From: Patescibacteria group bacterium UBA6017
GTDB taxonomy: Bacteria > Patescibacteriota > Saccharimonadia > UBA4664
DNA: 64,000 nucleotides
Reading direction: 5' to 3'
Assembly: GCA_002429485.1 (NCBI GenBank)
Contig: DIZX01000015.1
Location: 256,197 to 320,196, forward strand
Positions 1,714-61,794 of this stretch are shown here, piece by piece (positions within the stretch are counted from its first letter, which is position 1; each line of letters starts with the position of its first letter). A program made the position numbers and the translations under genes. Below the pieces are notes generated by a model, which was not told the origin of the DNA, did no database searches, and saw only the letters and a list, made by a program, of their open reading frames with translations.

Positions 1714-1977
1714 ATGAACATTAGCCAACAACTTACCATTCGCGGCGTCGATAAGACCACCAAGAAGAGCTTGGAGGCCCGTGCCCGTCAGCGCGGCCTC
1801 AGCCTCAATGCCTACAATCTTGAGCTACTACGTCGCGACGCGGGCACCAGTCCCGCCCGGCCCACCAATGGGCTCGAGCGCTTTGCCGGTCTTATGCCCT
1901 TCGACCCCATAGTTGAGGAGACGCTGGCCGATCAGCGCCGCCCCACTCCCGACAAATGGGACAATCATGGCCTATAG
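1714..1977 (+). CDS. vapB: Type II antitoxin (VapB-like, ribbon-helix-helix/AbrB-type).
   Basis: An 87-aa basic N-terminus (MNISQQLTIRGVDKTTKKSLEARARQRGLSLNAY) directly upstream of a PIN gene and overlapping it by 11 nt. Confidence 0.6.
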   Translation: MNISQQLTIRGVDKTTKKSLEARARQRGLSLNAYNLELLRRDAGTSPARPTNGLERFAGLMPFDPIVEETLADQRRPTPDKWDNHGL

Positions 1978-2368
1978 CCAATCATTCGCCATCGATACCA
2001 GCACCTTTTCACTCCTGTTGCGCGGTGATGACGACGTCAGAGACCTAGTTGGCACGGCCGAGCTCGTAGCTGTCCCGATTATTGTTGTAGCCGAGCTGCG
2101 CGCCGGCTTCCTGCATGGCCAAAAAACTGCACAGTATGGTCCCATCCTCGATGACTTTCTCTCTGATCCCCACACTATCGTTTTGCAGATCACGGACGAC
2201 ACCGTACCGGTCTACGCCGAGCTCTACGCCTACGCTCGCTCCAACGGTAAGCAATTCTCCAATAATGACCTCTGGATAGGGGCGCTCTGCATCCAGCACA
2301 GCTATCCGTTGCTTACGCACGACAAGGACTTTGATGCCCTGCCCCAGGTACGTCGCGTCCGGGGATAG
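1967..2368 (+). CDS. vapC: PIN-domain ribonuclease toxin (VapC-like).
   Basis: ORF 1913..2368. The likely start is MAYSQSFAIDTS at 1967. The acidic residues are spaced as in a PIN domain (IDTS...D...D), and the gene is translationally coupled to the upstream antitoxin. Confidence 0.7.
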   Translation: MAYSQSFAIDTSTFSLLLRGDDDVRDLVGTAELVAVPIIVVAELRAGFLHGQKTAQYGPILDDFLSDPHTIVLQITDDTVPVYAELYAYARSNGKQFSNNDLWIGALCIQHSYPLLTHDKDFDALPQVRRVRG

Positions 2369-6000: not shown

Positions 6001-6402
6001 TCATACACGGACGAGTTTCCAGGTGTGGGTCCCCAGGTCCTCGTACGAGCAGCTCGTGGATGCCACGAGGGTGAACGGTCCATCCACCGGGGTGAACGTG
6101 TGTGCAACCCCTCGCGGGATCTGCACTGCGGCCGGTGCGACGAGTAGCGTCTGATTCACGAGGTGTGAGCCTTCCCAGACGTCCTGCGTGAACAGAATCG
6201 CCTCACCATCGACGAGCGTGAAGTGTTCGTCTCCGTCGTGGTAGTGGTTCCCCAGCGGGTCAGCGTTGGCGTTGGCCTTGATGACTGTCGTTCGCACGAC
6301 GCTTCCGTCTTCCGCCGTGATCGTGGATTCGTGAATCGATCGACGATCATCTTCGTGGACCAGGGGCATTTCGGCGTCCAGCACAACATAGAACATGTTC
6401 AT
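6001..6402 (-). CDS. Cupin-fold protein, probably a sugar-nucleotide 3,4-ketoisomerase or epimerase-like (FdtA/WxcM type).
   Basis: A 133-aa protein with the cupin metal motif HYHDGDEHFTLVDGEA...H, located between an SDR sugar reductase and gmd. Confidence 0.45.
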   Translation of the reverse strand: MNMFYVVLDAEMPLVHEDDRRSIHESTITAEDGSVVRTTVIKANANADPLGNHYHDGDEHFTLVDGEAILFTQDVWEGSHLVNQTLLVAPAAVQIPRGVAHTFTPVDGPFTLVASTSCSYEDLGTHTWKLVRV

Positions 6403-6500
6403 CTCATTTCACTTGTCGGCAAGGTTGCCGTACGGGTGTCGCTGATGACGCGTACTATTATACCCTATAATACTTATGTTTGTCAAGAGCCAGAACTGCT

Positions 6501-7430
6501 CTAGCCCTCAACCCTCGCCCGCCAATCCTCCAGCGCCTCGCCCAGCGTCTGTTCCAAGGCAATCCCAGGCTCCCAGCCCGTATCCGCCTTTAGCTTCCCG
6601 TAGTCGCCATAAATCTCCGGCGCATCCACCGGCCTTACCTTGGATTCATCCACCACCGGCTTCAAATCGGAGTTCTTGGCATGCGCCAACAGACCCGCTA
6701 GGATATCGTTTCCGCTCGCCGAGCGTCCCGAGCAAATGTTGTAGGTCTCCCCGTTCTTGCCCTTCTCCAGTAGCGCTATATAGGCTCGTACGATATCTCG
6801 CACGTCGGTGTAGTCCCGCCGAGCGGACAAATTACCCACCGCAATCGTCGTCGCTCCCGACTTTCCGGCCTCGGCCACCTGTTTTGCCAGGTCGGCCACT
6901 ATAAATCCTTCGTTCTGCCCCGGCCCAATGTGGTTAAACGGCCGGGCGATCACATACTCAAACCCCCGTACCCCGTAGTATCCGGCCAGCTCTTCCTGCA
7001 AGCGCTTGCTCACGGAATACGGCGACGCGCACTTCACCCGCGAAGTCTCGGTGAGCGGCAATGGGGAAGTGGGGTCATACAAACTGCCGCTGCTCACAAT
7101 TACAAACCGCGGCTTCGCCCCCTGCGCCACCGCTGCCTCAAATAAGTTCAATTCAATCCCGCCATTCACCTCGATGTAATGCATCGGCGCATCAAACGAC
7201 GGCCCCACCGCCGCCAACCCCGCCAAATGCACCACCCCGTCGATCTGAGTGAAGTCGAGCGTGTCCACCTGGGCCCGGTCTGTGAGATCGAGGCTGGCAA
7301 ACGTCAGCCCTTCGGGTAATTCGCTCTTCCCCTTGCTCCCCGTAGCCATCACTTGATGCCCAGCTTCCAGCAGAGCACTCAATAAATGCGGCCCCACAAA
7401 TCCATTCGCGCCCGTAACTAATACTTTCAT
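6501..7430 (-). CDS. NAD(P)-dependent epimerase/dehydratase family. It may be a GDP-4-keto-6-deoxy-D-mannose reductase (Rmd-like).
   Basis: MKVLVTGANGFVGPHLL has a Rossmann GxxGxxG, the catalytic YSVSK (Y-x3-K) is present, the length is 309 aa, and the gene sits in the same locus as gmd. Confidence 0.65.
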   Translation of the reverse strand: MKVLVTGANGFVGPHLLSALLEAGHQVMATGSKGKSELPEGLTFASLDLTDRAQVDTLDFTQIDGVVHLAGLAAVGPSFDAPMHYIEVNGGIELNLFEAAVAQGAKPRFVIVSSGSLYDPTSPLPLTETSRVKCASPYSVSKRLQEELAGYYGVRGFEYVIARPFNHIGPGQNEGFIVADLAKQVAEAGKSGATTIAVGNLSARRDYTDVRDIVRAYIALLEKGKNGETYNICSGRSASGNDILAGLLAHAKNSDLKPVVDESKVRPVDAPEIYGDYGKLKADTGWEPGIALEQTLGEALEDWRARVEG

Positions 7431-33752: not shown

Positions 33753-35597
33753 CTAGTACACGACCACCGTTTGATTGCTAACCCCGGGCACCACGTTCAT
33801 ATTTGCCATCAGCTGATCGGTCGTCCAATAAAACGGCTTGCCCGTCATCGATTCGATAATCCAAAAGCCCAGCGGATTATCGGCGCTGCCCACCACGCCA
33901 AACACCACCCGCGCGTGCGACGACAGCCACGTCTGCACAACCCCGCTCGAGGTATTCCACGCATCGGCTTTCGACGGCGTACTGTGGCCCCAGAACTCCA
34001 CCGGATTGCCCCCGTGCACTTGCGCGCTGATGTAGCTGGCCGGTACGTTAAAGCTCGCCGTGGCCTGGCGGCCGCGACTTTGGGCCTCCTTCGCGATTGG
34101 TCCGGCATGCACCCCGTAGCCCGTGTTGTTGGGGTAGCCGCCTAGATCGCCCACGTACGTCAGGTTCGGGTTGTCCCATAGGTTGTTGGCTTGGTCCCTG
34201 GGATGGGGATTGTACCCGATCGTCGACAGGAGGTCCTTGTCGTCGCCCACATTCACGCCCCGAAACGCCAGCAGCATCCGCAGGGACGCCAGCTCGCAGC
34301 TCATCCGGTACTGGGTCTTGTACATCGGCACCCCCAGCTTGATCGTCTCTGGCAGCGTCGCCAGTGAGCCACTCAGTACGGCGGTATTGGGTAGGCCCCA
34401 AGTGGGTACTACCCCCGGCGCCACCCGAATCGTGTAATTGCTTTGGTACGCCAGGGTTGGCGAGTAGATCATGGTGTTGCCGCTCCACGAGAACGCTCCC
34501 GCCGCTCCGGGATTGAGGCTAAACTTGGCCTGCGCCGAGGCGTGGTCCACGGCCTGGTCGAAGGCCACCTTTATCGGTGCATTCAAGCCCACATCGCCCC
34601 CGCCCGGGCTAAAGCTCGCTCCCACTGCCCCGTTGCTGGCGAACTGGTAGGGCACATCTGCCTCGAGCACCCCGCCCACCTTCGACTTCAAACCGGCTTT
34701 GACCACGTAATTGTAGGTCGTGCCCGGTTTGAGCGCCCCGTCCGTCGGCACGTAGCGGTAGGTGTGATCGTCGACCCAGCTGCCCTTGCCCGCCAGATCA
34801 AACTTGAAGCCCGTTGCGCTCGGCTCCATCGGCTGAGCGAAGACGATGTCCGCGGTCTGCCCGGGCGCAAAGAACCCGCCCGTACGCGCTGCGGCAATTG
34901 CCGGCTGCGCCACCACCGTAAAAACATTGTTGAATAAATTGCGTTTGAGCGGATCGGCCACCCGGGTGTCTTCCAGCGTAAAGGTGTACTTTTCCCCCTG
35001 CTTCAGTGGCATTTGCGGCTCCCACACGAAGGTTTTGTCATCGCTCGAGATCAGCTTCAGCGGCTCCGCGGGCGTTAACGTGGGTTTGAGTTGACGAACC
35101 CCCTGGTTGGCGTCTCGCAGCGTCACGCTCAGCCGGGGCTTCACGCCCACGTCTTTGGCGTCAGCTGCCGGCGAGGTCTTGGCCACCCCCGATGGCAACT
35201 GAACCGTAAACCCTGCCTGGATGTCGCCCAGCCTTTTGCCCGTGACTGCCCGTCTGATGCCCGTAATCTTTAGCGCGTACTTGCGCCCGGCTTCGAACCG
35301 TTTTGTAGGCGTAAAGGCCGCCGCGCTCACCCCGAACACCGTGTGCTCCTGTTTCCACGATCCGGCCACCTGGGGCTCGATCGTGGCCGTATAGCCGGCC
35401 GCCACGTCCTGGCCGAAATCTACCTTGAGCGGCCCGGCCACCAGTACGGCTTGCTGGCTGGCCAGTGCTACCTTGAGCGTTCCCTGTGTGCGCATCCAGC
35501 CAATCACCGCCACGGTTCCAACGAGCACCAGGCCTACGCCTATGCCCGCCGTTACCGGTCGTTTAGAGATTATCTGCATGCACCCTCGATGCTCCAA
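33753..35597 (-). CDS. Secreted/anchored protein with Ig-like segments and a C-terminal C39-like (papain-fold) peptidase-like domain.
   Basis: An N-terminal TM segment is present. The C-terminal motif QYRMSCELASLRMLLAFRG (Cys) ... HARVVFGVVG (His) resembles the peptidase_C39-like family. Confidence 0.55.
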   Translation of the reverse strand: MEHRGCMQIISKRPVTAGIGVGLVLVGTVAVIGWMRTQGTLKVALASQQAVLVAGPLKVDFGQDVAAGYTATIEPQVAGSWKQEHTVFGVSAAAFTPTKRFEAGRKYALKITGIRRAVTGKRLGDIQAGFTVQLPSGVAKTSPAADAKDVGVKPRLSVTLRDANQGVRQLKPTLTPAEPLKLISSDDKTFVWEPQMPLKQGEKYTFTLEDTRVADPLKRNLFNNVFTVVAQPAIAAARTGGFFAPGQTADIVFAQPMEPSATGFKFDLAGKGSWVDDHTYRYVPTDGALKPGTTYNYVVKAGLKSKVGGVLEADVPYQFASNGAVGASFSPGGGDVGLNAPIKVAFDQAVDHASAQAKFSLNPGAAGAFSWSGNTMIYSPTLAYQSNYTIRVAPGVVPTWGLPNTAVLSGSLATLPETIKLGVPMYKTQYRMSCELASLRMLLAFRGVNVGDDKDLLSTIGYNPHPRDQANNLWDNPNLTYVGDLGGYPNNTGYGVHAGPIAKEAQSRGRQATASFNVPASYISAQVHGGNPVEFWGHSTPSKADAWNTSSGVVQTWLSSHARVVFGVVGSADNPLGFWIIESMTGKPFYWTTDQLMANMNVVPGVSNQTVVVY

Positions 35598-36855
35598 TCA
35601 TAGCAGGTTCTCGATAGGGCTTGGGTTCCGCGACCGGCTTTGAGGCCGACTTTCGGGGTGACATGATTTTCCGCTGCACCCACCCGGCCAGCCGCATACT
35701 CGGCTCGTCGACGTGCCTCGTGTAGATATCAGCCGCAATTACCACGATTACCAGGTACGCCGCTCCCGTGACCCCCAGGCTAAAGGCGTAACCGTGGCTG
35801 ACGTTGAGCGCCGCAAACATGTACGAGCTGATCGTCCCCAGCACCAGCAGGTGCAGCAGGTACATCGAAAACGACACCCGGCCGAGGTAGCGCAGTGGCC
35901 GGCTGGCGAAGACCGTTTTAAGGGCGGGGGAGTACAGTACCGCACCCAGCAGCAACGCCGCCCCCACGATATGCGTCAGAATAAATACCACGTTCGGATC
36001 GGCACCCTGCCACCCCAGCGCGCTGTATATTGTGCTCGTGGCTCCCGGAATCGGCGCCGCTCCCAGTCCCAAGCCCGCCAGCGCCAACCCCGCCGTGATC
36101 GGCCACGCCAGCTCTTTTGGTGACCAGCTTCGCGAGGTGACGTCGCACAGGGCAATCCCAAGCACAAACGCCAGGTAGTACGAGTTCCAGCTCGCCACCA
36201 TGAGCACCAAATACACCAGCCACCGCAGCCGCAACTTGCCAAACAGCGCCAGGAAGGCAAATACCAGCATTGAGCCCAGAAACTCCACCTTCATCGTCCA
36301 CAGCGCGTTATTGAGCACCCCCGGCTCCGAATTGCCGACCAGTATTCCGTACGCCCCGTAATACACCGCCTCCCCCAAGCTCACTGTCCGCGGCCAGAAA
36401 TTCGCCAGCCATGACGACCCGCTGATCGCCGCCGCCGGGTCGCTGAAGTTCAGCCCGAACCGAATAATGGCCCACGCCAGCAGTACCGACCCCAGAATCG
36501 GCGGCATCAGCCGAAAGTAGCGCTTCACCGCCGCCTTGCGCACCGCCGCCGTGTTGCCGGTCTGAAAGAACGCGTAGCTCAGTACGTACCCGCTCAAAAT
36601 AAAGAAGATACACACCGCAAAGTTGCCCGCTACCAGTAGCTGAAGGGGAGTCGTGTAAATTGTTCGCTCAATCGCGAAGTGATTCGCCCCCGCCCCGCGC
36701 GTGGCAAACACCAAGAAAACATAAGCAAAATGATGAAACACCACAATTAGGGCAGCCAAGCCGCGTAGGCCGTTTAGGTATTCGAGCCTAATTTTTCCAA
36801 CCGCGATTAGGCTCGGCTCGCATCGCCTCGGTTTCATCTGGACGAGCATAGTCAT
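35563..36855 (-). CDS. Acyltransferase family 3 membrane protein (third paralogue).
   Basis: LEYLNGLRGLAALIVVFHHFAYVFL plus multiple TM segments. The start is uncertain: ORF track 36900, likely 36855 or 36837. It overlaps the 3' end of the upstream cupin gene. Confidence 0.8.
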   Translation of the reverse strand: MTMLVQMKPRRCEPSLIAVGKIRLEYLNGLRGLAALIVVFHHFAYVFLVFATRGAGANHFAIERTIYTTPLQLLVAGNFAVCIFFILSGYVLSYAFFQTGNTAAVRKAAVKRYFRLMPPILGSVLLAWAIIRFGLNFSDPAAAISGSSWLANFWPRTVSLGEAVYYGAYGILVGNSEPGVLNNALWTMKVEFLGSMLVFAFLALFGKLRLRWLVYLVLMVASWNSYYLAFVLGIALCDVTSRSWSPKELAWPITAGLALAGLGLGAAPIPGATSTIYSALGWQGADPNVVFILTHIVGAALLLGAVLYSPALKTVFASRPLRYLGRVSFSMYLLHLLVLGTISSYMFAALNVSHGYAFSLGVTGAAYLVIVVIAADIYTRHVDEPSMRLAGWVQRKIMSPRKSASKPVAEPKPYREPAMIGASRVHADNL

Positions 36856-37243
36856 CTTCAAGCCGCAGCGTGGTGCCCAGCTCGGGAGTGGAGGCCTCAA
36901 ATACGTCGCAGTCGCCCAGTCCGATCAATCGGTGGCGCTGCCCCAGTGCGGTGGTGTAGCCCACGCCCGGTTTGAGCTCAATCTGCTCCATTTCACCGGC
37001 CGCATTTTCGATCAGCACGCCCGCCTGCCCGCGCAGCACGCACCAAGTTTCGGTCTTCTGGTCGTGCGCCTGCAGGCTCAACCGTGCCCCGGAGTTAATG
37101 TGAATAATTTTAGCTGCATATGGCGCATCCGCAGCCGTCAGCAGAATCTCGTAGCCCCACGGCTTGTCGGTACGTTTGGCGGTTGCATCAGTCTTAAACC
37201 CGGACTTGTCGATCGAATTCAAAAAATCTTTGGCGTCAGCCAT
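36788..37243 (-). CDS. Cupin protein of the mannose-6-phosphate-isomerase type II / ManC C-terminal domain family.
   Basis: KPWGYEILL...KIIHINSGARLSLQAHDQKTETWCVLRGQAGV...GQRHRL is the PMI-type cupin signature. GGGAG lies 8 nt before the ATG at 37243. Confidence 0.7.
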   Translation of the reverse strand: MADAKDFLNSIDKSGFKTDATAKRTDKPWGYEILLTAADAPYAAKIIHINSGARLSLQAHDQKTETWCVLRGQAGVLIENAAGEMEQIELKPGVGYTTALGQRHRLIGLGDCDVFEASTPELGTTLRLEDDYARPDETEAMRAEPNRGWKN

Positions 37244-37878: not shown

Positions 37879-39705
<1,827 letters not shown>

Positions 39706-41745: not shown

Positions 41746-42192
41746 ATGAAACCCCTGAAGGTCGTATTTGATACCAATATCTATGTCATGGCCGCCGGCA
41801 TGCCCGGTGGTTACATTGAATATTGGATGGAACTGGTCCGACCACCCCAACTGAAATTCGAGCTGTATACCTCTCCCGCCATTTTGGCCGAGGTTCAAGA
41901 AAAATTAGAGCAAAAGCTGCAGTTTGAGCGGGCGCTGGCGGTGGACTATATTGAATCCCTTAAAACTATTGCCCGTGTGGTCAGTCCGACCATGGCATTA
42001 AACGCCGTCCCGGACGGCCCCGACGACAACCGTATCCTCGAGTGCTCACTTGAGGCTCGGGCCGACATTATTGTCTCGGCTGATAAGGATTTATTGCGCC
42101 TCAAAACCTTTGAGAGTGCGCAGATCACCCACCCGTCCAACCTTAAGTACATTTTCAAATATTTAGAGACCGAAACTAATCCCCAGACATGA
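41746..42192 (+). CDS. PIN-domain protein (putative toxin/RNase).
   Basis: KVVFDTNIYV is the PIN N-terminal acidic motif. The length is 148 aa. Confidence 0.7.
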   Translation: MKPLKVVFDTNIYVMAAGMPGGYIEYWMELVRPPQLKFELYTSPAILAEVQEKLEQKLQFERALAVDYIESLKTIARVVSPTMALNAVPDGPDDNRILECSLEARADIIVSADKDLLRLKTFESAQITHPSNLKYIFKYLETETNPQT

Positions 42193-42250: not shown

Positions 42251-42625
42251 CTAGTCGTCCAAGGACATCGCTCCGATAAACTGAACGGCGCTCCTGAACG
42301 CTCTCAGGGTCATCGTGACAGTTCCGTCATCACGTAGAGTGATGTCCTGGTAGGCATTTGGAATGCGCCTGTAGCAGGCGAGGAATTCCTCCGCCATCTT
42401 CTGGCTCACGTGTGGAGTGCGAGACCAGCGCATGCCGAAACCTTTGTGGTCGCCCTCGTGACCCAGCGGTTCTAGGCAGTAGGGTCCTCTAATGACTCCC
42501 GGGTGCCACATCCGCCAGCACTCATTCTTGCCGGCCCGGTCGTAGTCCTTCGAATGGGTTGTGTAGCGCTGCTCCCAATCCTCGTCGGTAACGCGCAAGG
42601 GTGCTTCTGGTGATGCAGTTGTCAT
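42251..42625 (-). CDS. Hypothetical protein (125 aa).
   Basis: ORF 42251..42793. The likely start is MTTASPEAPL at 42625, with GAGGGG 8 nt upstream and 17 nt after the stop of the upstream gene. No motif was recognised. Confidence 0.45.
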   Translation of the reverse strand: MTTASPEAPLRVTDEDWEQRYTTHSKDYDRAGKNECWRMWHPGVIRGPYCLEPLGHEGDHKGFGMRWSRTPHVSQKMAEEFLACYRRIPNAYQDITLRDDGTVTMTLRAFRSAVQFIGAMSLDD

Positions 42626-42642
42626 GGCGTGCCCCTCGTCTA

Positions 42643-43008
42643 TCAGTGAAGTTGAAGGTGTACGTTTCCTGTAGGGGCATCGGATGGAGCGACTTTGCTG
42701 AGAGCCAAGCGCACCAATCCAGCCTCGGCGGTTGATAGATGCCTTAGCCCGCGTCGCAGTTGGATGGAATCGATGATTGATCCATCCTGGCAATCAGTCC
42801 GGATATCCCAGTCCGAGTACTGGCTGATGGGTCTCCATTCCCTAGTCACGCGTTGGATCGCCCAACCGCCACTGTAGTGGAAAAGAACGCACGACTGGTT
42901 GTGTCGGCTTACTTCGATGCCTGTTACTGTCTTAACAGGTGTCTCAGTGAGCCTGTATCCATCAACCCGGTGGAGCTTTTCCAGCTCTGCTCGATGGTCG
43001 TTGGACAT
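42643..43008 (-). CDS. Hypothetical protein (121 aa).
   Basis: The ATG at 43008 has GGAG upstream. It forms a two-gene unit with 42251..42625. Confidence 0.45.
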   Translation of the reverse strand: MSNDHRAELEKLHRVDGYRLTETPVKTVTGIEVSRHNQSCVLFHYSGGWAIQRVTREWRPISQYSDWDIRTDCQDGSIIDSIQLRRGLRHLSTAEAGLVRLALSKVAPSDAPTGNVHLQLH

Positions 43009-43155: not shown

Positions 43156-44361
43156 CTAGGAGTAATCTTTTATCAGTCTCGCATAGTAATGCGCGCTCGG
43201 CCGAATCCGCCGGTTCATGGTTCTACGGTCCACCTCAATCAGCCCGAATTTTGGCCAGTAGCCCTCGTGCCATTCGAAGTTGTCGAGCAGACTCCAATAA
43301 AAATACCCGCGGCAATCTACACCTTCGCTCGTGGCTTTGGCGATGCTCTTGAGAGATTCCTCGATATACCAGCCCCGGTGTATGTCCGCCGCGTCAGCCA
43401 GGCCACTCTCTGTGATATACATCGGTTTGAGGTAGCGCGCGAGCCGGGCGAGTACTTCGTAGTGGCCCTCCGGGTGTAACTCCCAGCCCATGTCGCTTTT
43501 TTGCGCTAGCTTTCGGCGACCAAAACTGCGCTTGAGGTAAAACTGTACCCCCAGCCAATCAGAGTGCGGGGCCAACCGTTTCACGAAATAGTCGTTCGCC
43601 ACCTGCAACAATTGGTGCGTGGCTTCGAACAGTGTTTGGCTGGTACAAAAACCGACCTGAAACTCTGGATTCACCGTCTTGAGGGCTTCATAGGCCCGAA
43701 TATGAGCCTGCACCATACTGCGCCTCACCCGGGAATAACGGGTTGGACTATGCCGCTGCGGCGGCCAGATTCCTCGCACGTAGGCCATTGCCGAGGAGAC
43801 CTCGGGCTCATTGAGAGTCGTAAAGTGTGCTACATAAGGCTTCATAGCCGCGCCCATAGTGCGGGCATAATCCGCGAACCGCCGCACGACGGTCTCAGAC
43901 TCCCATCCACCCTGGGCCGCCGCCCACACCGGCAGCGTGAAGTGCCATAGCGTCACAAAGGGCTCCTGGCCATGATCCCGGCAGGCTTTGGCGACGTCGA
44001 CATAGTGGGCGATGGCCGCCTGGTCGTAAGTTCCTTCTTGGGGTTCAATCCGTGACCACTCCACCGAAAATCGGAAAGCCGTTAGACCCAGTGCTTGGGC
44101 CGTAGCCAGATCTTGAGCGTACCGAGTGTAATGCCCCGCCGCATCACCAGAGATATAGTTGGATTCAGATTTGGCCGCGGTTTTAATGTCGGGCCATACT
44201 GGTGACGGCCCTTGGCCATAACTTGTCCGATACGTGGCATTGGCCGCCAGTCCTGGGGCCGATTTCCGCTCCCACTCTGTCCAGTCATTGTGGTTGCCGC
44301 CCTCTACCTGGTGGGCCGCCGTCGCGCTTCCGAACAGAAAATTTGCGGGAAGCTTGTGCAT
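43156..44361 (-). CDS. GH1-family beta-glucosidase.
   Basis: FLFGSATAAHQVEGG, the acid/base TLNEP and the nucleophile YITESG motifs are present. Confidence 0.9.
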   Translation of the reverse strand: MHKLPANFLFGSATAAHQVEGGNHNDWTEWERKSAPGLAANATYRTSYGQGPSPVWPDIKTAAKSESNYISGDAAGHYTRYAQDLATAQALGLTAFRFSVEWSRIEPQEGTYDQAAIAHYVDVAKACRDHGQEPFVTLWHFTLPVWAAAQGGWESETVVRRFADYARTMGAAMKPYVAHFTTLNEPEVSSAMAYVRGIWPPQRHSPTRYSRVRRSMVQAHIRAYEALKTVNPEFQVGFCTSQTLFEATHQLLQVANDYFVKRLAPHSDWLGVQFYLKRSFGRRKLAQKSDMGWELHPEGHYEVLARLARYLKPMYITESGLADAADIHRGWYIEESLKSIAKATSEGVDCRGYFYWSLLDNFEWHEGYWPKFGLIEVDRRTMNRRIRPSAHYYARLIKDYS

Positions 44362-44369
44362 GGCCGGTG

Positions 44370-46178
44370 CTAATCCTCGCTCGCCGGCCGAATGTGCGTC
44401 ACATGCGCCGGGCTGAGGCGGAACAGCCCCTCGTCCAAACGAACCTGGTCGAAGTAGTGGGCCATAAAGCCGACCGATCGCGACAAAATAAATAGCGAGT
44501 TGAAGAATTCGGTGGCCGCCAGCGCTTCAAGTTGCTCGATCGAATAGCCTTCTTTTTCGGCCAACAAGTCCAGTAAGATGGCCGCCATGGCGCCATCCAC
44601 GTTCAGGATCAGATTACCCTTTTTGCGGGTAGTTTCGGCTTCCACACCCAGTGCAAATTTGGTGAACTTAGCCTGTTCCAGGCCGTCAACGAAGGTCAGT
44701 AATTTGGCCACGCGGGGGTCGGGGGAGTCGATACGGTATTTCTTGTGCCCTATGCCCAGAATGTAGCGCTTGTCGGCCGCGTAGGCCTCCACCAGCGCCG
44801 TGGGGGATACGCCAGTACTCACGCCTTCGAGCCAGGTCAGTGCGGCTTGGTTGACCGCTCCGCCGAAACGCGGGCCGATCGTGAGCAGTCCCGCCGCCAA
44901 AGAGCTCACCAGATCGCGCCCGGCCCTCGCCGTCACGATGGTATTGACCGCCCCCGACACGTACGGACCGTGATCGACTAGCAGTTTGAGTACATAATCC
45001 ACGAAGGCTTCGAGCTCGGCCGAGTGCACTTGCTTGCCCAAAAACATCGAGATTACAATTTTAGCGAAGGAATTATTGTCGGCCAAATCGAGTAGACTTT
45101 GATCCAGCACCTGGACCTCGCCGTCACCCATATCGTGCGAGATGGAGCTGGCTATTAGGCCGGCCTTGCGAGCCGACATGGCTTTGATCACCGGCGCCAG
45201 GTCGGCGGCCTCGACCGCTCCCGGCAATTCGGCCACGTACTGCGCAAACTCAGCAAAGGTGGTCGCACTCTTGGCGCCCGCCGCGCGCAAGGCGTCGCTC
45301 TTGGCCCGCGCCGATTCATCCACACTGGCTGCCATGGCCTTAGCATGGCCAAACTGCGGCGGCGTCTCAAACAGCTCGGCCACCGTGCCGGCGATGTAGG
45401 CCACCACCGGCTTGGTTACTGCGCCGCTGGAGATCATCTCCGCCAGCTCGTATTCATCGCGCCCGCCCAGCTCGCCGAAGTACACAATTGAAGTAGTTGC
45501 TGGGTCGGCCTCTGCCGCCGCAAACACCTCCTGCGGCGAGCTCATCGGAAACCGTTCGCCGCCCAACGCCAGCGAAAAGCTCAACGCGTGGCCGGTGGTG
45601 GCCACCAGCCGAATAATCTCACTCACCATGCCGCCGCTCGAGCTCACCACTGCTACCGAGCCGGACGTAAATAGCTTCGAATTCACCAGCTGTGGCGCCT
45701 GCACTCCGCCGATCGGACCGAGCTTCACCACGCCCGGTACTACTATGCCTACGCTGGCCCCGCCCGCTAGCCACACTCCTGCCGCGTTGGCCGTTTCGGC
45801 CAGCTCCAGCGCGTGCTTTTCGGGTAACCCTTCCGCGAACACCACCCCGCCCACCAGGGCTGGCAGTGCCTCGATGGCCTGCTTCGACGACGCCAATACT
45901 CGCCGCCCCGACGATAAGTTCAAAAATAAGTTCACCTGCTCGCTCAAGCTCGTTGGCAGCCGTCCCACGGCCGAATACACCGGTATCGTCACTTCATTTT
46001 CGCCAAAGAAGTAGCGCTCGCTTTTGCGCCCCGTAGCCACTATCGCCACTACCGACGGCGCGGTGCGACCCGCCAAAAAGTCGAAATCCAGTATCGATTG
46101 AATAATACCTTTGGAGCTTCCCAGAGCCACAATCTTGGGATCAAGCGCCCGCAGAGCTGAAATATTTAGTGTACTCAC
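44370..46178 (-). CDS. aclA: ATP-citrate lyase alpha subunit (CoA-binding/phosphohistidine domain plus citryl-CoA lyase domain).
   Basis: PPQFGHAKAM matches the ACLY catalytic His loop (QFGHAGA). GIGHKKYRIDSPDPRV matches the ACLY/citrate-synthase-like GIGHRVKSINNPDMRV. The length is 602 aa. Confidence 0.8.
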   Translation of the reverse strand: MSTLNISALRALDPKIVALGSSKGIIQSILDFDFLAGRTAPSVVAIVATGRKSERYFFGENEVTIPVYSAVGRLPTSLSEQVNLFLNLSSGRRVLASSKQAIEALPALVGGVVFAEGLPEKHALELAETANAAGVWLAGGASVGIVVPGVVKLGPIGGVQAPQLVNSKLFTSGSVAVVSSSGGMVSEIIRLVATTGHALSFSLALGGERFPMSSPQEVFAAAEADPATTSIVYFGELGGRDEYELAEMISSGAVTKPVVAYIAGTVAELFETPPQFGHAKAMAASVDESARAKSDALRAAGAKSATTFAEFAQYVAELPGAVEAADLAPVIKAMSARKAGLIASSISHDMGDGEVQVLDQSLLDLADNNSFAKIVISMFLGKQVHSAELEAFVDYVLKLLVDHGPYVSGAVNTIVTARAGRDLVSSLAAGLLTIGPRFGGAVNQAALTWLEGVSTGVSPTALVEAYAADKRYILGIGHKKYRIDSPDPRVAKLLTFVDGLEQAKFTKFALGVEAETTRKKGNLILNVDGAMAAILLDLLAEKEGYSIEQLEALAATEFFNSLFILSRSVGFMAHYFDQVRLDEGLFRLSPAHVTHIRPASED

Positions 46179-47365
46179 GCTGTTACCTCCAGCTCTTTTA
46201 TCGCCAACGGAATAATCGCCGCCAGCATCATTTCCGGCCCCGCTACCTCCCCCAGCAATCCTTCTCGCTCCAGGAAGCTGCGCATCATTGCCAGCCCCTC
46301 AACTTCGAACGGACCGCCCCGACGCACAAATACCTTGATACCTTGCTCGCGCATGGCCGCTTTGGCCTCGTCCAGCGCCGCAAGCACACCCTTGAACGTC
46401 GCCCGCACGTCGGTGAAGTTGGCTACTCCGCCGGCAATCACCAGCACCTTGCGCGGCGCCTTAGATTCGAGCATCAGCGAAATAATCTGCCGTGTGTAAA
46501 TTTGGGTTTCCTCGGCATTAGGGTTGCCGCTGTACTCACCGTAATTACCCAGTTCTTTGCCGCGCCCCTGATTAAACACCTCGTCCGCCAGCGCCACGCT
46601 CGCCCCGCCGCCGCTCAGTAGCAAGAAAATATTGCCCTGCGGGTTCAGTACCGCCAGCCGAAATGACGCCTGGCTTTGAGACGCCAGCTCTTCCACGGCC
46701 GCCGCCTGAGGCAGCGGAGCTGATGCCGTATAATCGCGAAAATCTTCCGGCGTCCAGCGTCCGTCCACAAAGAAGGCCGCCTCGGTATCTACCTCCACCG
46801 CCGCATCGAGTAGGCCCACTTTGCCGTCCATCACTACCAACGGGTTCACTTCCAAAAATGACCAGTAGTTATCATTAAAGGTCTTGGCGAGGAGCTGAAG
46901 TGTGTCCGTTGATACTCCCAGCGCCTCAGCCGCCCGTCCGGCTACCTCGGTCGTAAATACCGCCTGGCGAATTCCGTCCGCCGCATCTTCCACATTTACC
47001 CCGCCGGCCGCCGACCAGCTAATAATCGTGCCCGCCCGTTGGCGTTCGAACGCCAAATACCGTTCGGAATCTGCTGCGTGGTCCATCTGCGGCTCCACTA
47101 ACATAAATTCAAAACCCTTCGCCGCCAGCTCGGCGATATCGCCGCTCACTTCGGCTTTGGTGCGGCCCAGCTTCACCAGCCCCTTTTTGAAGCGCCCCTT
47201 CACTCCTTGATCCACTTTCACCACGTAGCTGCCGCCAGCCGCCAGCGAGTCCACCGTGGACTGCCAGTTGGCCTTCAGATCTATACTCACACCGCTATAA
47301 GCCGTGCCTAGTTCTTTAGCGAGGATTGTTTTGGCTCTGAATTCGGAAATTTTCTTGCGCGGCAT
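46175..47365 (-). CDS. aclB: ATP-citrate lyase beta subunit (ATP-grasp).
   Basis: ORF 46175..47449. The likely start is MPRKKISEFRAKTILAKEL at 47365, which parallels the ACLY N-terminus (KAISEQTGKELLYKF ... VVKPDQLIKRRGKLGL). A TATAAT lies ~26 nt upstream. Confidence 0.75.
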   Translation of the reverse strand: MPRKKISEFRAKTILAKELGTAYSGVSIDLKANWQSTVDSLAAGGSYVVKVDQGVKGRFKKGLVKLGRTKAEVSGDIAELAAKGFEFMLVEPQMDHAADSERYLAFERQRAGTIISWSAAGGVNVEDAADGIRQAVFTTEVAGRAAEALGVSTDTLQLLAKTFNDNYWSFLEVNPLVVMDGKVGLLDAAVEVDTEAAFFVDGRWTPEDFRDYTASAPLPQAAAVEELASQSQASFRLAVLNPQGNIFLLLSGGGASVALADEVFNQGRGKELGNYGEYSGNPNAEETQIYTRQIISLMLESKAPRKVLVIAGGVANFTDVRATFKGVLAALDEAKAAMREQGIKVFVRRGGPFEVEGLAMMRSFLEREGLLGEVAGPEMMLAAIIPLAIKELEVTA

Positions 47366-47433
47366 GGATTCTTCTCTACTTACGACAGGTATTATACCGT
47401 GATGGGTACTTAAATGTGCCATAATACTTACAT

Positions 47434-49227
47434 ATGGTGAAACCTTCAAGCGACTTCCTCGAAGACGAGGACACTGGGCAATCCGAACTCAGCTCGCAGT
47501 GGCAGCGTGCTCCGCTGTGGCTTCGTGGGGTCGGCTTAATCTTTGTTGGCGGGTTCTTGTTGGTGGGTAGCTTTGAGCTGGTCTACGCCGGTAAGATCTA
47601 TCCGGGCATTTCCGCCGATGGCGTTTCGCTGGCTGGTGCCACCCGGGCTTCCGCTGCCAAACAGCTCAATTCCAAAATTGATACCTTTTCCGGCGGCGTT
47701 GTCACCATCTCGAATGGCGACACCAATCTCCGCATCCCCGTGGCCGGTCTCGACGTGTCCTATGACACCAACAAAGCCGTCGATCTGGCCTACCAATACG
47801 GGCGCGAGGGGAGTTGGACCAACCGGCTTCATCAGCAATTACGCGCCCTTCTGGGCCGGGCAACCAACTTTTCGGCCTACGGCTATTCCGATACCCGTTT
47901 GGCCCCCTACGTGGTTCAGCTTGGCGATGATTTATCCACGCCGGTAGCCGACGCCAGCCTAAACTTTGACTCCGACAAGCCCCAGGTCACCCCGGCGCAG
48001 TCCGGCACCCGCCTCGATTATGGCCGCCTCACTCAGCTCGTTGGCGACCGGCTGTCCCAAACCTCTATCGACCCGATCCCCGCGCCCGTCTACCAGCTCT
48101 CGCCGGTCCTCGGCACCGATGCTCTCACGGCCGTCACCAACCAACTCGGCAGCTACCTGGCCGGTCCCATCACCCTCAGCTACAGCGGCACCGAAACCAC
48201 CATCGATCAGAAGACTATCATTTCGTGGATCCAGGTCGGCGCCCGCCCCACGAAGTTATTCCTTAACTCTCACGACCTAGCCGATTTATACCCGCCGCCG
48301 GCCGCGGCCAATCTGGGCTTGAGCAAGCCCGCCGTCGCCAAGTACGTTACCGATCTGGCGGCTCAGCTCGACCAAACGCCCCAAAACTCCGGCTTGGCCA
48401 TGAAGGACGGCGTGCTGGCTATCGTGCAGGCCAGCCGCACCGGCATCAAGCTCGATCAAGCCGACACTACCAGTGCCATCATCGGCAGCCTGGGTCGCAC
48501 CTCCGGCGACCGCCTCATCACTCTCAAGCTCGAGACCACCCAAGCCGCCGTCAACGAGTCTAATCTCGACTCGCTCGGCATCAAGGAGCAAATCTCGGAG
48601 GGCGAAACCTACTTCCCCGGCTCACCCAGCACCCGCCTCACCAACGTCCGCGCCGGCGCCAAGCGCTTCAATGGCGTCTTGCTGGCTCCCGGCGAAACCT
48701 TTTCCTTCGGCAAGCTCCTCGGCGCCGTCGACGCTTCCACCGGTTACGTCCCCGAACTCGTCATCCTCGGTGACCATGAGGAAAAGCAGTATGGCGGGGG
48801 ACTCTGCCAGGTATCGTCCACCGCTTTCCGCGCTGCTTTGGCTGCGGGCCTGCCCATTACCGAGCGCGTCAATCACGCTTTCGCCATTAGTTATTACACC
48901 TGGCCCTACACCGTCCCCGGTATGGACGCCACGATTTATTACCCCGCCGTTGATCTCAAATTCACCAACGATACCGGCAGTTACATCCTTATGCAGACCA
49001 TTATGAATGGTGTCGATCTCAAGTTTGACTTCTTTGGTACCAAAACTAAGACCGGCGTCATTCGCGGCCCCAACTTCGTCACTGGTACGAACGACGCCAC
49101 CCAACCTTCGCACACCGTCTTCTACCGTGACGTGCTCGACCTCGCAGGCAACGTCACCAAGACCGACACCTTCAATACCTACTACAAGTCGAGCAAGGAC
49201 TTCCCGGTTACCAAACAGTTCAACTAA
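47434..49227 (+). CDS. VanW-domain protein with an N-terminal membrane anchor.
   Basis: GGGLCQVSSTAFRAALAAGLPITERVNHAF...YPAVDLKF is VanW-like. A TM segment is present near the N-terminus. Confidence 0.8.
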   Translation: MVKPSSDFLEDEDTGQSELSSQWQRAPLWLRGVGLIFVGGFLLVGSFELVYAGKIYPGISADGVSLAGATRASAAKQLNSKIDTFSGGVVTISNGDTNLRIPVAGLDVSYDTNKAVDLAYQYGREGSWTNRLHQQLRALLGRATNFSAYGYSDTRLAPYVVQLGDDLSTPVADASLNFDSDKPQVTPAQSGTRLDYGRLTQLVGDRLSQTSIDPIPAPVYQLSPVLGTDALTAVTNQLGSYLAGPITLSYSGTETTIDQKTIISWIQVGARPTKLFLNSHDLADLYPPPAAANLGLSKPAVAKYVTDLAAQLDQTPQNSGLAMKDGVLAIVQASRTGIKLDQADTTSAIIGSLGRTSGDRLITLKLETTQAAVNESNLDSLGIKEQISEGETYFPGSPSTRLTNVRAGAKRFNGVLLAPGETFSFGKLLGAVDASTGYVPELVILGDHEEKQYGGGLCQVSSTAFRAALAAGLPITERVNHAFAISYYTWPYTVPGMDATIYYPAVDLKFTNDTGSYILMQTIMNGVDLKFDFFGTKTKTGVIRGPNFVTGTNDATQPSHTVFYRDVLDLAGNVTKTDTFNTYYKSSKDFPVTKQFN

Positions 49228-49304: not shown

Positions 49305-49923
49305 ATGGCAGAGCCACTAACAAAGCGTCAAAAAGAAGTTCTCGACTTCGTGTCCCAATTCATCGAGCTGCACGGCTACGCGCCCAGCTATCGTGAAATT
49401 GCGACTTATTTCAAATACGGCTCCGTTGCGACCGTGGCTGAGCACATTGAGTCGCTCGTCGGCAAGGGCATGCTCAGCAAAAGCGACAATGAGGCCCGCT
49501 CCATCCAGCTAGTCAAAACCGATGTTGATGCTACTCCCAGCATCTCCCTGCCAATTCTTGGCCTCGTGGCTGCCGGCCAACCCATTGAAACCCTCGGCAT
49601 GCATCCCGAAACCCTCGAAGTTCCGCCTTTCATGGTCGGCCGCAAGAACTCCTACGTCCTCCAGGTCAAAGGCGACTCCATGATCGACGAAGGCATTCAC
49701 ACCGGCGACTACGTAGTCGTTACCGAGAAGCCCGTCCCCTCAAAACGGCGAGATGGTCATTGCCCTCATCAACGGTGGCGAGGCCACCCTCAAGCGGTAC
49801 TACAAAGAGAAGACGCACATCCGCCTCCAGCCCTCCAATGCCGCCATGGACCCCATAATCATCGAGCCCGGAACGCCCATCGAAATTCAGGGCGTTGTCA
49901 TCGGTCTCATCCGTAAGTACTAG
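49305..49923 (+). CDS. lexA: LexA repressor, interrupted by an apparent +1 frameshift in a C4 run at 49736..49739.
   Basis: The N-terminal wHTH and the Ser motif GDSM are in frame 0 (ORF 49305..49916). The Lys motif and canonical C-terminus NGEMVIALINGGEATLKRYYKEKTHIRLQPSNAAMDPIIIEPGTPIEIQGVVIGLIRKY* are in the +1 frame ending at 49923. Deleting one C restores a 205-aa LexA. Confidence 0.85.
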
Positions 49924-60825: not shown

Positions 60826-61794
60826 TTAACTATCCGCGTGGCTTGATGAGAAATGCTTGTATATGTCCGCTATCCAGTTTGAATGCAGGGCCCGGGCATC
60901 GGTCACCCACCCCATACTTGGCACCTTAGTGGGGTCATCCGATAGATAGTAGTGCTCCGGAAGCTTATGCCCGCTCGCAAGGTCGCGCCTGTATTCGGCG
61001 TCCAGATCATATTTGTCATATTCGGGGTGTCCTTGTATGAAATAATCATGTCCGCCGGCATCATTCTTGTCTTCCGCGAGCAGCCAGCCAATTTTGTCGT
61101 TTGATGCCAAAACCGATATATTAGCCGCCAACAACGCCTCGGTCGGTACATCGCCCCACCTCGAGTGAGGAGCAACTATGTCATCATTCATATTCAACAC
61201 CATACTGCTCGAGGTGCCATTGGGTACTTTGTGCGCAAAAACCCCAAATATCTTCTCTTCCACCGCAGATCGCTCTAGTCCATATATCGTGTGCAGGGCG
61301 AAGTGGCTCGCCAAACAGGAATATATTGTTGAATAGATATTACTGCGTGCATATCTTATTACTCCCTCTAGCTGCTTGGCGTATCGTATCTGAGAGAAGT
61401 CTAAAAGTTTGTGACCCTTAGCGTTATCCGTCTGATTTAGCTCAAGATTATCACCCGTAATAATTAGCCCGTCTAGACCGATCTCAGCTGCCTGAGAAAA
61501 CGCTTCATAGCGAGATAACTGTTTGGCTCTGCTCCCGCCGTTTCGTTCGCGGTCATCATCATCAAATTTCAATAATATCGGCTCGATCTGCAGCAGGGTA
61601 TGGCTGATATATTTCAGCCATTGTTCCTCGGTTTGCTTCATCACTGCCGCCGGCATTAAATTCAGTAGGCCAATCCGCGCCGGCCGAATGTCTTGCCTGT
61701 TCGCAGCTGCTTCGGAAATCACTGAAGCTCCCTTTTGGCGAAGGTTAAAGAATAGCGGGTCTTGCTTCAATCGATCGGGGATTATGATAGACAT
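60826..61794 (-). CDS. metA: Homoserine O-acyltransferase (MetA/HTS family).
   Basis: IRPARIGLLNLMP, GLIITGDNLE, APHSRWGDVP and GHPEYD parallel the E. coli MetA motifs. Confidence 0.85.
   Translation of the reverse strand: MSIIIPDRLKQDPLFFNLRQKGASVISEAAANRQDIRPARIGLLNLMPAAVMKQTEEQWLKYISHTLLQIEPILLKFDDDDRERNGGSRAKQLSRYEAFSQAAEIGLDGLIITGDNLELNQTDNAKGHKLLDFSQIRYAKQLEGVIRYARSNIYSTIYSCLASHFALHTIYGLERSAVEEKIFGVFAHKVPNGTSSSMVLNMNDDIVAPHSRWGDVPTEALLAANISVLASNDKIGWLLAEDKNDAGGHDYFIQGHPEYDKYDLDAEYRRDLASGHKLPEHYYLSDDPTKVPSMGWVTDARALHSNWIADIYKHFSSSHADS

Follow-up and report, generated by a model that had tools for sequence, protein, structure and literature searches.

A two-subunit ATP-citrate lyase of candidate phyla radiation bacteria and its possible role in supplying acetyl-CoA for cell-envelope precursors

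What use does a Saccharimonadia bacterium make of an ATP-citrate lyase (ACL)? The question is raised by contig DIZX01000015.1 of Patescibacteria group bacterium UBA6017, from which a stretch of 64,000 nucleotides (hereafter the window) was analyzed. On its minus strand the window carries two overlapping genes, aclB and aclA, for which the original prediction had proposed a two-subunit ACL with ACLY-type catalytic motifs, leaving it open whether the enzyme serves carbon fixation through the reductive tricarboxylic acid (rTCA) cycle or provides acetyl-CoA. Domain composition, matches to solved ACL structures and active-site residues confirmed the first part: as judged from its sequence, the pair is a genuine and apparently functional heteromeric ACL (EC 2.3.3.8). 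For the second part the evidence leans towards acetyl-CoA supply, considering that the organism, a tiny and host-dependent bacterium, belongs to the candidate phyla radiation (CPR), that no rTCA partner was found among the open reading frames (ORFs) of the window that were scanned, and that related loci link ACL to genes for hexosamine and peptidoglycan precursors. We regard it as reasonably likely that a catalytically competent heteromeric ACL cleaves acquired citrate to supply acetyl-CoA for synthesis of UDP-N-acetylglucosamine (UDP-GlcNAc) and UDP-N-acetylmuramic acid (UDP-MurNAc) and for acetylation of the envelope. The genes and motifs on which the identification rests are located as follows:

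46175 to 47365, minus strand: aclB, ACL beta subunit of 396 amino acids with ATP-grasp and citrate-binding domains (ORF, Pfam and solved structures)
44370 to 46178, minus strand: aclA, ACL alpha subunit of 602 amino acids with a CoA-binding/phosphohistidine part and a citrate-synthase-like citryl-CoA-lyase module (ORF, Pfam and solved structures)
46175 to 46190, minus strand: aclB/aclA junction, reading GGAGGtaacagcGTGA (direct sequence reading)
45336 to 45356, minus strand: phosphohistidine loop QFGHAKA, AclA residues 275-281 (alignment to human ACLY)
44709 to 44756, minus strand: citryl-CoA lyase active site GIGHKKYRIDSPDPRV, AclA residues 475-490 (alignment)
44592 to 44612, minus strand: LILNVDG with the catalytic Asp of the lyase module, AclA residues 523-529 (alignment)
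46412 to 46420, minus strand: citrate-binding loop N316-F317-T318 of AclB (human N346-F347-T348), kept in 45 of 45 sequences

The start of aclB was placed at the ATG at 47365, with which the protein opens as MPRKK, because close homologues in other assemblies comprise 396 amino acids; the mechanically called ORF reaches a TTG at 47449. Translation of aclA starts at a GTG. The two ORFs share 4 nt, and direct reading of the sequence revealed the junction GTGA, in which the GTG start of aclA lies over the TGA stop of aclB. A Shine-Dalgarno-like GGAGG is present at 46190-46186, 7 nt 5' of the aclA start. Overlap and GGAGG form an arrangement typical of translational coupling.

Identity of the subunits was assessed by Pfam, NCBIfam and comparison with solved structures. 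AclB matched the ACL-type ATP-grasp family PF24948 with 91.4 bits (cut-off 83) and Citrate_bind (PF16114) with 181.6 bits (E 1.4e-53, cut-off 26.8). AclA contains Ligase_CoA and Succ_CoA_lig at residues 173-315 and Citrate_synt at residues 330-587 within one ORF. The best-scoring solved relative of both subunits is the heteromeric ACLY-A/B of the archaeon Methanosaeta (Methanothrix) concilii (6hxi, 6znw): AclA matched 6hxi_B (ACLY-B) with 328.7 bits (E down to 6e-97) in a single alignment covering residues 13-601, and AclB matched 6hxi_A with 188.6 bits (best E 2e-54). Human ACLY followed with 322.7 bits for AclA and 183 bits for AclB, the latter against its N-terminal part, and the Chlorobium limicola enzyme with 216.8 bits for AclA (6hxj_B) and 126.4 bits for AclB. 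Other solved families scored far lower with AclA, i.e. at most 76 bits for the alpha subunit of succinyl-CoA synthetase (SCS), 74 bits for citryl-CoA lyase (CCL), 57 bits for the small subunit of citryl-CoA synthetase (CCS) and 39 bits for citrate synthase. In NCBIfam, AclA reached 105.8 bits against the sucD cut-off of 336, and AclB 58.9 bits against the sucC cut-off of 375.55 and 29.4 bits against the cut-off of 604 for the beta subunit of malate-CoA ligase. CCL models gave 50-76 bits at cut-offs of 193-409, and citrate synthase models likewise stayed far below their cut-offs. The NCBIfam scores far under threshold, together with at most 76 bits for SCS alpha versus 329 bits for ACL, rule out that the pair is an SCS or a malate-CoA ligase; neither NCBIfam nor the solved structures place it there. 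A CCS/CCL-type enzyme, which had been considered as well, is not supported, since the parts resembling SCS alpha and CCL are joined in a single chain, the arrangement of true ACL.

The catalytic residues were inspected next to these global scores. Residues were mapped to human ACLY via printed alignments and then counted over 125 AclA and 45 AclB sequences of the CPR clade described below. The list of human residues and their functional labels are what we take to be established by ACLY crystallography; the alignments were computed. Both motifs quoted in the original prediction, QFGHAKA and GIGHKKYRIDSPDPRV, are present in the AclA translation. AclA H278 corresponds to the phosphohistidine H760 of human ACLY and E116 to E599, and both are kept in 125 of 125 sequences. 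In the lyase module, H478 (human H975), R489 (R986), D528 (D1026), R567 (R1065) and R587 (R1085) are each invariant in all 125 sequences, and the position of H403 (human H900) is occupied by His in 117 and by Asn in 8 of them. D528 falls exactly where the solved entry 6znw_B has Ala for the Asp of 6hxi_B. In AclB, K50, K56, R58, E101, N174 and D187 correspond to K58, K64, R66, E118, N203 and D216 of the human ATP-grasp domain, while G252-254, G280, N316-F317-T318 and R348-R349 correspond to the human citrate site (G281-283, G309, N346-T348 and R378-379); all are kept in at least 44 of 45 sequences. Thus, every catalytic, ATP-binding and citrate-binding residue that was checked is present in the window proteins, including the catalytic His and the citrate-binding residues whose loss would have spoken against an ACL.

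There is one consistent departure from the pattern of catalytic residues, and it marks the CPR clade. Two residues past the phosphohistidine, AclA has Lys (K280, window positions 45339-45341) for an otherwise universal Gly, changing GHAGA to GHAKA. Human, Chlorobiaceae and DPANN ACL sequences in the same alignment have Gly at this position, and GHAGA also occurs in SCS. Lys is found in 121 of 125 CPR-clade sequences and in 117 of 120 close homologues among the matches listed; in the representative library, 79 sequences contain the motif, 21 of them as GHAKA and 56 as GHAGA.

Comparison with known systems shows how conventional the enzyme is otherwise. M. concilii ACLY-A/B has the same two-gene layout, the same domains in each subunit and the catalytic residues in common with the window pair. 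It differs by GHAGA, by an identity of only ~33% over trimmed columns and by a His, shared with human ACLY (H908), where the CPR clade has V411 of AclA; moreover, the match of AclB begins only at residue 85, the N-terminal part of the ATP-grasp domain being more diverged. Human ACLY (6poe, 6hxh, 3mwd and further entries) carries the same residues (H760, E599, H900, H975, R986, D1026, R1065, R1085; G309, N346, T348, R379) and scores close to the archaeal enzyme, but is a single chain of 1101 amino acids with a regulatory linker, whereas the window has two overlapping genes and no linker. Its role in providing biosynthetic acetyl-CoA from imported citrate is like the one proposed here. C. limicola AclBA (6hxj) likewise consists of two subunits with the same domains and catalytic residues, but is more distant (31% identity), belongs to a separate clade and acts within a complete rTCA cycle. 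Finally, CCS/CCL of Hydrogenobacter (6hxq, 6hxp) and SCS consist of homologous modules and use the same phosphohistidine chemistry, but synthetase small subunit and lyase of CCS/CCL are separate proteins.

To which lineage does the pair belong? An identical AclA protein (P0001) is encoded on a contig of 490,927 nt and in NCBI assembly GCA_002413465.1, with which the window shares 99.98% identity over 14.7 kb, and the named close relatives of AclA are assigned to Candidatus Saccharimonadia or Saccharimonadales. An exhaustive search of representative sequences returned only 139 clusters (50% identity) at E <1e-30. A neighbor-joining tree was built from 52 full-length alpha sequences using Kimura distances, 100 bootstraps and no SCS or CCS/CCL outgroup. 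AclA of the window falls inside a CPR clade with 86% bootstrap support, which also takes in a Dojkabacteria sequence. It does not group with the AclA of Chlorobiaceae: the Chlorobiaceae (P0192) and Nitrospinae (P0197) sequences pair with 99% bootstrap apart from the CPR clade, and the ACL is therefore not of the rTCA type. The lineages next to the CPR clade include that of M. concilii, a sequence from a DPANN archaeon and fused proteins of ~1000-1160 amino acids, as long as eukaryotic ACLY; the deeper nodes of the tree are poorly supported (29-57% bootstrap). Over trimmed columns, AclA shares 31% identity with the Chlorobiaceae sequence, 33% with M. concilii and 36-38% with the best of the fused proteins. 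There is also a second, divergent lineage of AclA (P0147 cluster; also P0133 and P0139), with 34-37% identity to the window protein. It branches beside the main CPR clade with weak support (57%), and at least one of its members, P0271 (MBP6005557.1) of the P0147 cluster, is labeled 'Candidatus Saccharibacteria bacterium'.

The distribution of the genes was surveyed by scanning one genome per species of the Genome Taxonomy Database (GTDB) with peptide patterns derived from the query, which yielded 51 loci. Most are labeled Saccharimonadia or Saccharibacteria, and others Levyibacteriota, Woesebacteria, Roizmanbacteria or 'Patescibacteria group'; some of the CPR-labeled loci lie on contigs of 0.3-0.94 Mb. 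The CPR ACL clade is found almost only in contigs labeled CPR or Patescibacteria. Wherever upstream sequence is present, aclB is located directly 5' of aclA. In one 'Patescibacteria group' locus (L040, 9974-11851) aclA is split into two ORFs of 327 and 285 amino acids following an intact aclB, which reflects either a frameshift, a pseudogene or a sequencing error. About 12 loci bear non-CPR labels, namely 'Gammaproteobacteria' or 'Pseudomonadales' (L012-L016, L019, L020, L022, L023, L049, L051, L052) and 'Dormiibacterota' (L038). Several of them have the gene order of Levyibacteriota, Woesebacteria or Saccharimonadales loci (aclA-murB; superoxide dismutase/two-component system/aclBA-glmM-GNAT), and the three labels are probably wrong for these contigs with CPR-type aclBA.

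Next, ORFs were called in all loci and clustered, and recurrent neighbors were annotated; synteny was counted over 48 loci. Three gene orders downstream of aclA recur:

aclA, then glmM (TIGR01455, 463 bits against a cut-off of 447.55), then a GNAT protein of 205 amino acids: 8 loci, same strand, gap of -88 to +30 nt
aclA, then murB (TIGR00179, 193 bits against a cut-off of 144.5): 6 loci, same strand, gap of -16 to +106 nt
aclA, then glmS: 2 loci, same strand, gap of 0-2 nt

Hence, glmM, murB or glmS directly follows aclA on the same strand in 16 of 48 loci. The 205-amino-acid GNAT always follows glmM downstream of aclBA (L028, L029, L032, L033, L036, L038, L039 and L043; at ~13.0-13.7 kb in the 21-kb loci) and could be a stand-alone glucosamine-phosphate N-acetyltransferase. 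In further arrangements, glmM-GNAT is located directly 5' of aclB (L009) or divergently from aclBA (L031), GNAT is convergent with aclA (L046), a second GNAT family directly follows aclA (L015), or murB and glmS lie a few genes upstream (L023, L024). glmS is found two to seven genes from ACL in additional loci, the window included; in 13 loci its distance from aclA is no more than 10 kb. Altogether, glmS, glmM, GNAT or murB occurs within 10 kb of ACL in 32 of 48 loci, a count for which there is no matched control gene. At least six different arrangements are spread over deep CPR subclades in a tree of the loci's own AclA. Therefore, the association of ACL with envelope genes was kept or re-formed through several rearrangements.

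The following elements flank the pair in the window itself:

43156 to 44361, minus strand: GH1 beta-glucosidase-like gene starting 8 nt past the aclA stop, co-directional (Pfam PF00232, 244 bits)
37879 to 39705, plus strand: glmS for the first enzyme of UDP-GlcNAc synthesis, 4.7 kb from aclA in a separate operon (TIGR01135, 767 bits against a cut-off of 418)
47421 to 47449, minus strand: promoter-like TTGAAG-17-TATTAT upstream of aclB in the divergent spacer (match to a sigma-70-like consensus)

The GH1 gene, which reached 249.7 bits in the NCBIfam BGL model (cut-off 478.5), is the probable third gene of the operon, in this lineage only. Among the fetched loci a GH1 gene follows aclA in the window, in the locus from the other assembly of the same organism (L001) and in L003 only, and GH1 as a general functional partner of ACL was dropped. 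Thus, the original prediction was correct in placing ACL among a GH1 glucosidase and surface-glycan genes, both of which are present in the window, but the GH1 neighbor is lineage-specific. The 5' flank of aclB is a spacer of 68 nt shared with a divergent VanW-like gene. The promoter-like sequence in this spacer is no better than chance: the consensus scan returned 3 sites versus 2.1 expected, and scanning the window for terminators and promoters yielded nothing exceeding the shuffled expectation. Rfam and tRNA scans of the window gave no matches.

Pfam analysis of ~60 ORFs of the window detected no 2-oxoglutarate or pyruvate:ferredoxin oxidoreductase, fumarate reductase, aconitase, isocitrate dehydrogenase or citrate synthase, and rTCA partner enzymes are also absent from the neighbor families annotated in the related loci. 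The window further contains:

495 to 31718: surface-glycan locus of ~30 kb, with more envelope genes at 33753 to 36900
60826 to 61794, minus strand: MetA-type homoserine O-acyltransferase homologue (209 bits with the acetyl-type and 199 bits with the succinyl-type model, both below cut-off)

The glycan locus, which is large for a genome of probably ~1 Mb, encodes about eight GT4 and one GT2 glycosyltransferases, GDP-mannose 4,6-dehydratase and two more epimerases/dehydratases. Glycan and envelope genes further comprise a Wzm/Wzt ABC exporter with a Wzt_C domain, an FkbM methyltransferase, UDP-glucose dehydrogenase, a ManC-like nucleotidyltransferase, three Acyl_transf_3 membrane O-acyltransferases, an Ig-domain protein of 973 amino acids and a Big_5/C39-like peptidase protein of 614 amino acids. 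The MetA homologue is a potential further consumer of acyl-CoA; the lineage is generally considered incapable of amino acid synthesis.

How could the enzyme work, and for what? By homology and residue conservation, AclB would bind ATP through its ATP-grasp domain and citrate through its citrate-binding domain. The phosphate would first be transferred to H278 of AclA and from there to citrate, and CoA, aided by E116, would attack the citryl-phosphate. Citryl-phosphate and subsequently citryl-CoA would be formed at the AclB/AclA interface, whereupon the C-terminal module of AclA (H403, H478, D528, R489, R567, R587) would split citryl-CoA into acetyl-CoA and oxaloacetate. Regarding physiology, we infer that the enzyme runs in the direction of cleavage, with citrate coming from a host or the surroundings, and would thus provide acetyl-CoA to a bacterium lacking pyruvate dehydrogenase (PDH), pyruvate:ferredoxin oxidoreductase (PFOR) and a TCA cycle. 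Its main sink would be the N-acetylation step of UDP-GlcNAc/UDP-MurNAc synthesis; GNAT proteins, membrane O-acetyltransferases and possibly MetA may draw on it as well, and oxaloacetate would be a by-product converted to malate, pyruvate or aspartate. Such a use would match cytosolic eukaryotic ACLY by analogy rather than the enzyme of rTCA autotrophs. Published genomes fit this proposal. PDH and PFOR are missing from a soil Saccharibacteria genome, whose sole TCA gene encodes a fumarate reductase subunit, and acetyl-CoA metabolism is apparently lacking in this and six other complete Saccharibacteria genomes (PMC6031116). In activated-sludge Saccharimonadia there is no TCA cycle, while pyruvate, lactate, acetate and malate are interconvertible (PMC9530719).

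Several observations weigh against acetyl-CoA supply to the envelope as the role of this ACL. The products of glmS, glmM and murB flank the acetyl-CoA-consuming step but use no acetyl-CoA themselves, and the acetyltransferase GlmU, which performs that step, was not found beside ACL. The GNAT following glmM retrieved only generic SpeG/RimI-type matches from the PDB, as a single sequence and as an 11-sequence profile, and stayed below the NCBIfam cut-offs. The immediate operon partner in the window is a GH1 hydrolase and not a hexosamine gene. The loci used for synteny are related, so their counts are not phylogenetically independent, and retrieval with query-derived peptide patterns biases them towards relatives. 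Acetyl-CoA may also have another origin: published Saccharibacteria genomes carry phosphoketolase and acetate kinase (PMC6031116), and acetyl-phosphate could serve as a source if a phosphotransacetylase exists. The 64 kb inspected exclude rTCA genes or other sources of acetyl-CoA elsewhere in the genome only via the published Saccharibacteria genomes. Both flux direction and citrate source are matters of inference, and no gene was recognized as encoding a citrate transporter, with the gene after aclA in L009 as the sole hint. This gene (6139-7353, plus strand) matches MFS_3/MFS_1, starts 57 nt 3' of aclA on the same strand and is the only transporter seen directly linked to ACL; it is a candidate citrate importer.

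Among the alternatives, citrate catabolism or anaplerosis fares best, although we deem it unlikely as the principal role. In this case oxaloacetate would be the main product, feeding aspartate, malate, phosphoenolpyruvate or an NADH sink via malate dehydrogenase, while acetyl-CoA would be converted to acetate with recovery of ATP. Genes reported to link pyruvate, lactate, acetate and malate in Saccharimonadia would suit such a pathway (PMC9530719). An AvtA-type transaminase gene is located 2.9 kb from aclA (546 bits against a cut-off of 467), and both ACL products would be useful. However, this class I/II aminotransferase scores as a valine-pyruvate and not as an aspartate transaminase, and was dropped as a link from oxaloacetate to aspartate. 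Moreover, fermenters normally use the ATP-independent citrate lyase CitDEF, whereas here one ATP would be spent by ACL and one regained from acetyl-CoA, leaving zero net energy. The neighbors of the related loci also include no oxaloacetate-using gene conserved beside ACL. Supply of oxaloacetate through citrate catabolism is plausible as a co-benefit.

A role in the reverse direction, synthesis of citrate from acetyl-CoA and oxaloacetate with the gain of one ATP, appears very unlikely. ACL catalyzes a reaction near equilibrium, and its reversal has been reported; in Desulfobacter postgatei, ACL is said to operate towards citrate in an oxidative cycle, reportedly a finding of Moeller and colleagues from 1987. 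Substrate-level phosphorylation of this kind would benefit an energy-starved symbiont, but requires that acetyl-CoA be available and citrate be used, and neither enzymes forming acetyl-CoA nor the later steps of the TCA cycle are present in published Saccharibacteria genomes. The link to genes of envelope biosynthesis also suits a supplier of acetyl-CoA better than a consumer.

We give very little credence to the possibility that the contig was mis-binned and is not of CPR origin, or that the substrate is not citrate. Some related loci are indeed labeled 'Gammaproteobacteria', 'Pseudomonadales' or 'Dormiibacterota', and the Gly-to-Lys change adjoining the phosphohistidine is unique to the CPR clade. 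Against this, the gene pair occurs in dozens of independent CPR-labeled metagenome-assembled genomes (MAGs), some of them on the contigs of up to 0.94 Mb mentioned above, the oddly labeled loci are syntenic with those of Levyibacteriota, Woesebacteria or Saccharimonadales, and all citrate-contacting residues of human ACLY are conserved. Finally, that ACL is the citrate-cleaving step of an rTCA (Arnon-Buchanan) cycle for autotrophic CO2 fixation is scarcely credible, even though ACL is the KEGG marker of this cycle, automated pipelines file it there and a published supplement does so for Saccharimonadia aclAB (PMC12577380), given that no partner enzyme is present among the window ORFs scanned, that published Saccharibacteria/Patescibacteria genomes are without a TCA cycle, that AclA falls outside the Chlorobiaceae/Nitrospinae-type clade and that the neighbors in relatives are cell-envelope and not TCA genes.

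Further genes of the window encode a beta-lactamase-fold protein, a CDF transporter and LexA:

41746 to 42192, plus strand: PIN-domain (toxin-like) gene
1913 to 2368, plus strand: PIN-domain (toxin-like) gene
42251 to 43008, minus strand: two overlapping ORFs without family match, between PIN and GH1 genes
49305 to 49916, plus strand: lexA

Compared with L001 (GCA_002413465.1), lexA is frameshifted in the window by AAAA for AAA at ~49742-49745, and the product has lost the C-terminal half of the S24 peptidase domain in favor of an out-of-frame tail rich in Arg, His and Pro. Either an assembly error in the homopolymer or a genuine pseudogene would account for this difference.

Automatic annotation had already named the genes, 'ATP citrate (pro-S)-lyase' at JGI and 'citrate/2-methylcitrate synthase' at NCBI. 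We searched the literature for ACL in Saccharibacteria, Patescibacteria, CPR, DPANN and Microgenomates and found one passing mention for Saccharimonadia and no functional analysis; in the searchable literature we found no analysis of the CPR ACL clade, of the GHAKA signature, of the operon links or of the role. The mention is a single sentence in a 2025 paper stating that Saccharimonadia MAGs are enriched in aclAB, with a supplementary table reporting aclAB in 3 of 11 MAGs of one group under 'Arnon-Buchanan cycle' (PMC12577380). Counting aclAB of CPR MAGs in such pipelines as evidence for carbon fixation through the rTCA cycle is almost certainly wrong. The enzyme itself is orthodox and belongs to a known family, and it is the physiological reading that would be new. 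The present data add to ACL phylogenies a large bacterial clade that lies no nearer to the classical bacterial rTCA enzymes than to those of archaea and eukaryotes. This clade is relevant to the discussion of where eukaryotic ACLY came from, in which the ACL of DPANN and Asgard archaea has been considered (PMC11976288).

Saccharibacteria build peptidoglycan and heavily decorated envelopes that need acetyl groups, yet genome papers see no recognizable route to acetyl-CoA (PMC6031116). A conserved ACL linked to glmS, glmM, murB and acetyltransferases offers a testable answer to this gap, i.e. citrate from the host or the environment. More tentatively, and by analogy for DPANN archaea as well, ACL might be the principal or even the sole source of acetyl-CoA for many environmental members of the CPR. 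Citrate leaking from the host, or taken from it, would then be a currency of episymbiosis, cleaved by the symbiont to acetylate peptidoglycan and glycan precursors, and the clade-specific Lys of GHAKA could tune the enzyme for this one-way cleavage. If true, this would explain the repeated aclBA-glmM-GNAT, aclBA-murB and aclBA-glmS operons, and the system would represent a prokaryotic counterpart of the eukaryotic shuttle that carries citrate from the mitochondrion to the cytosol.

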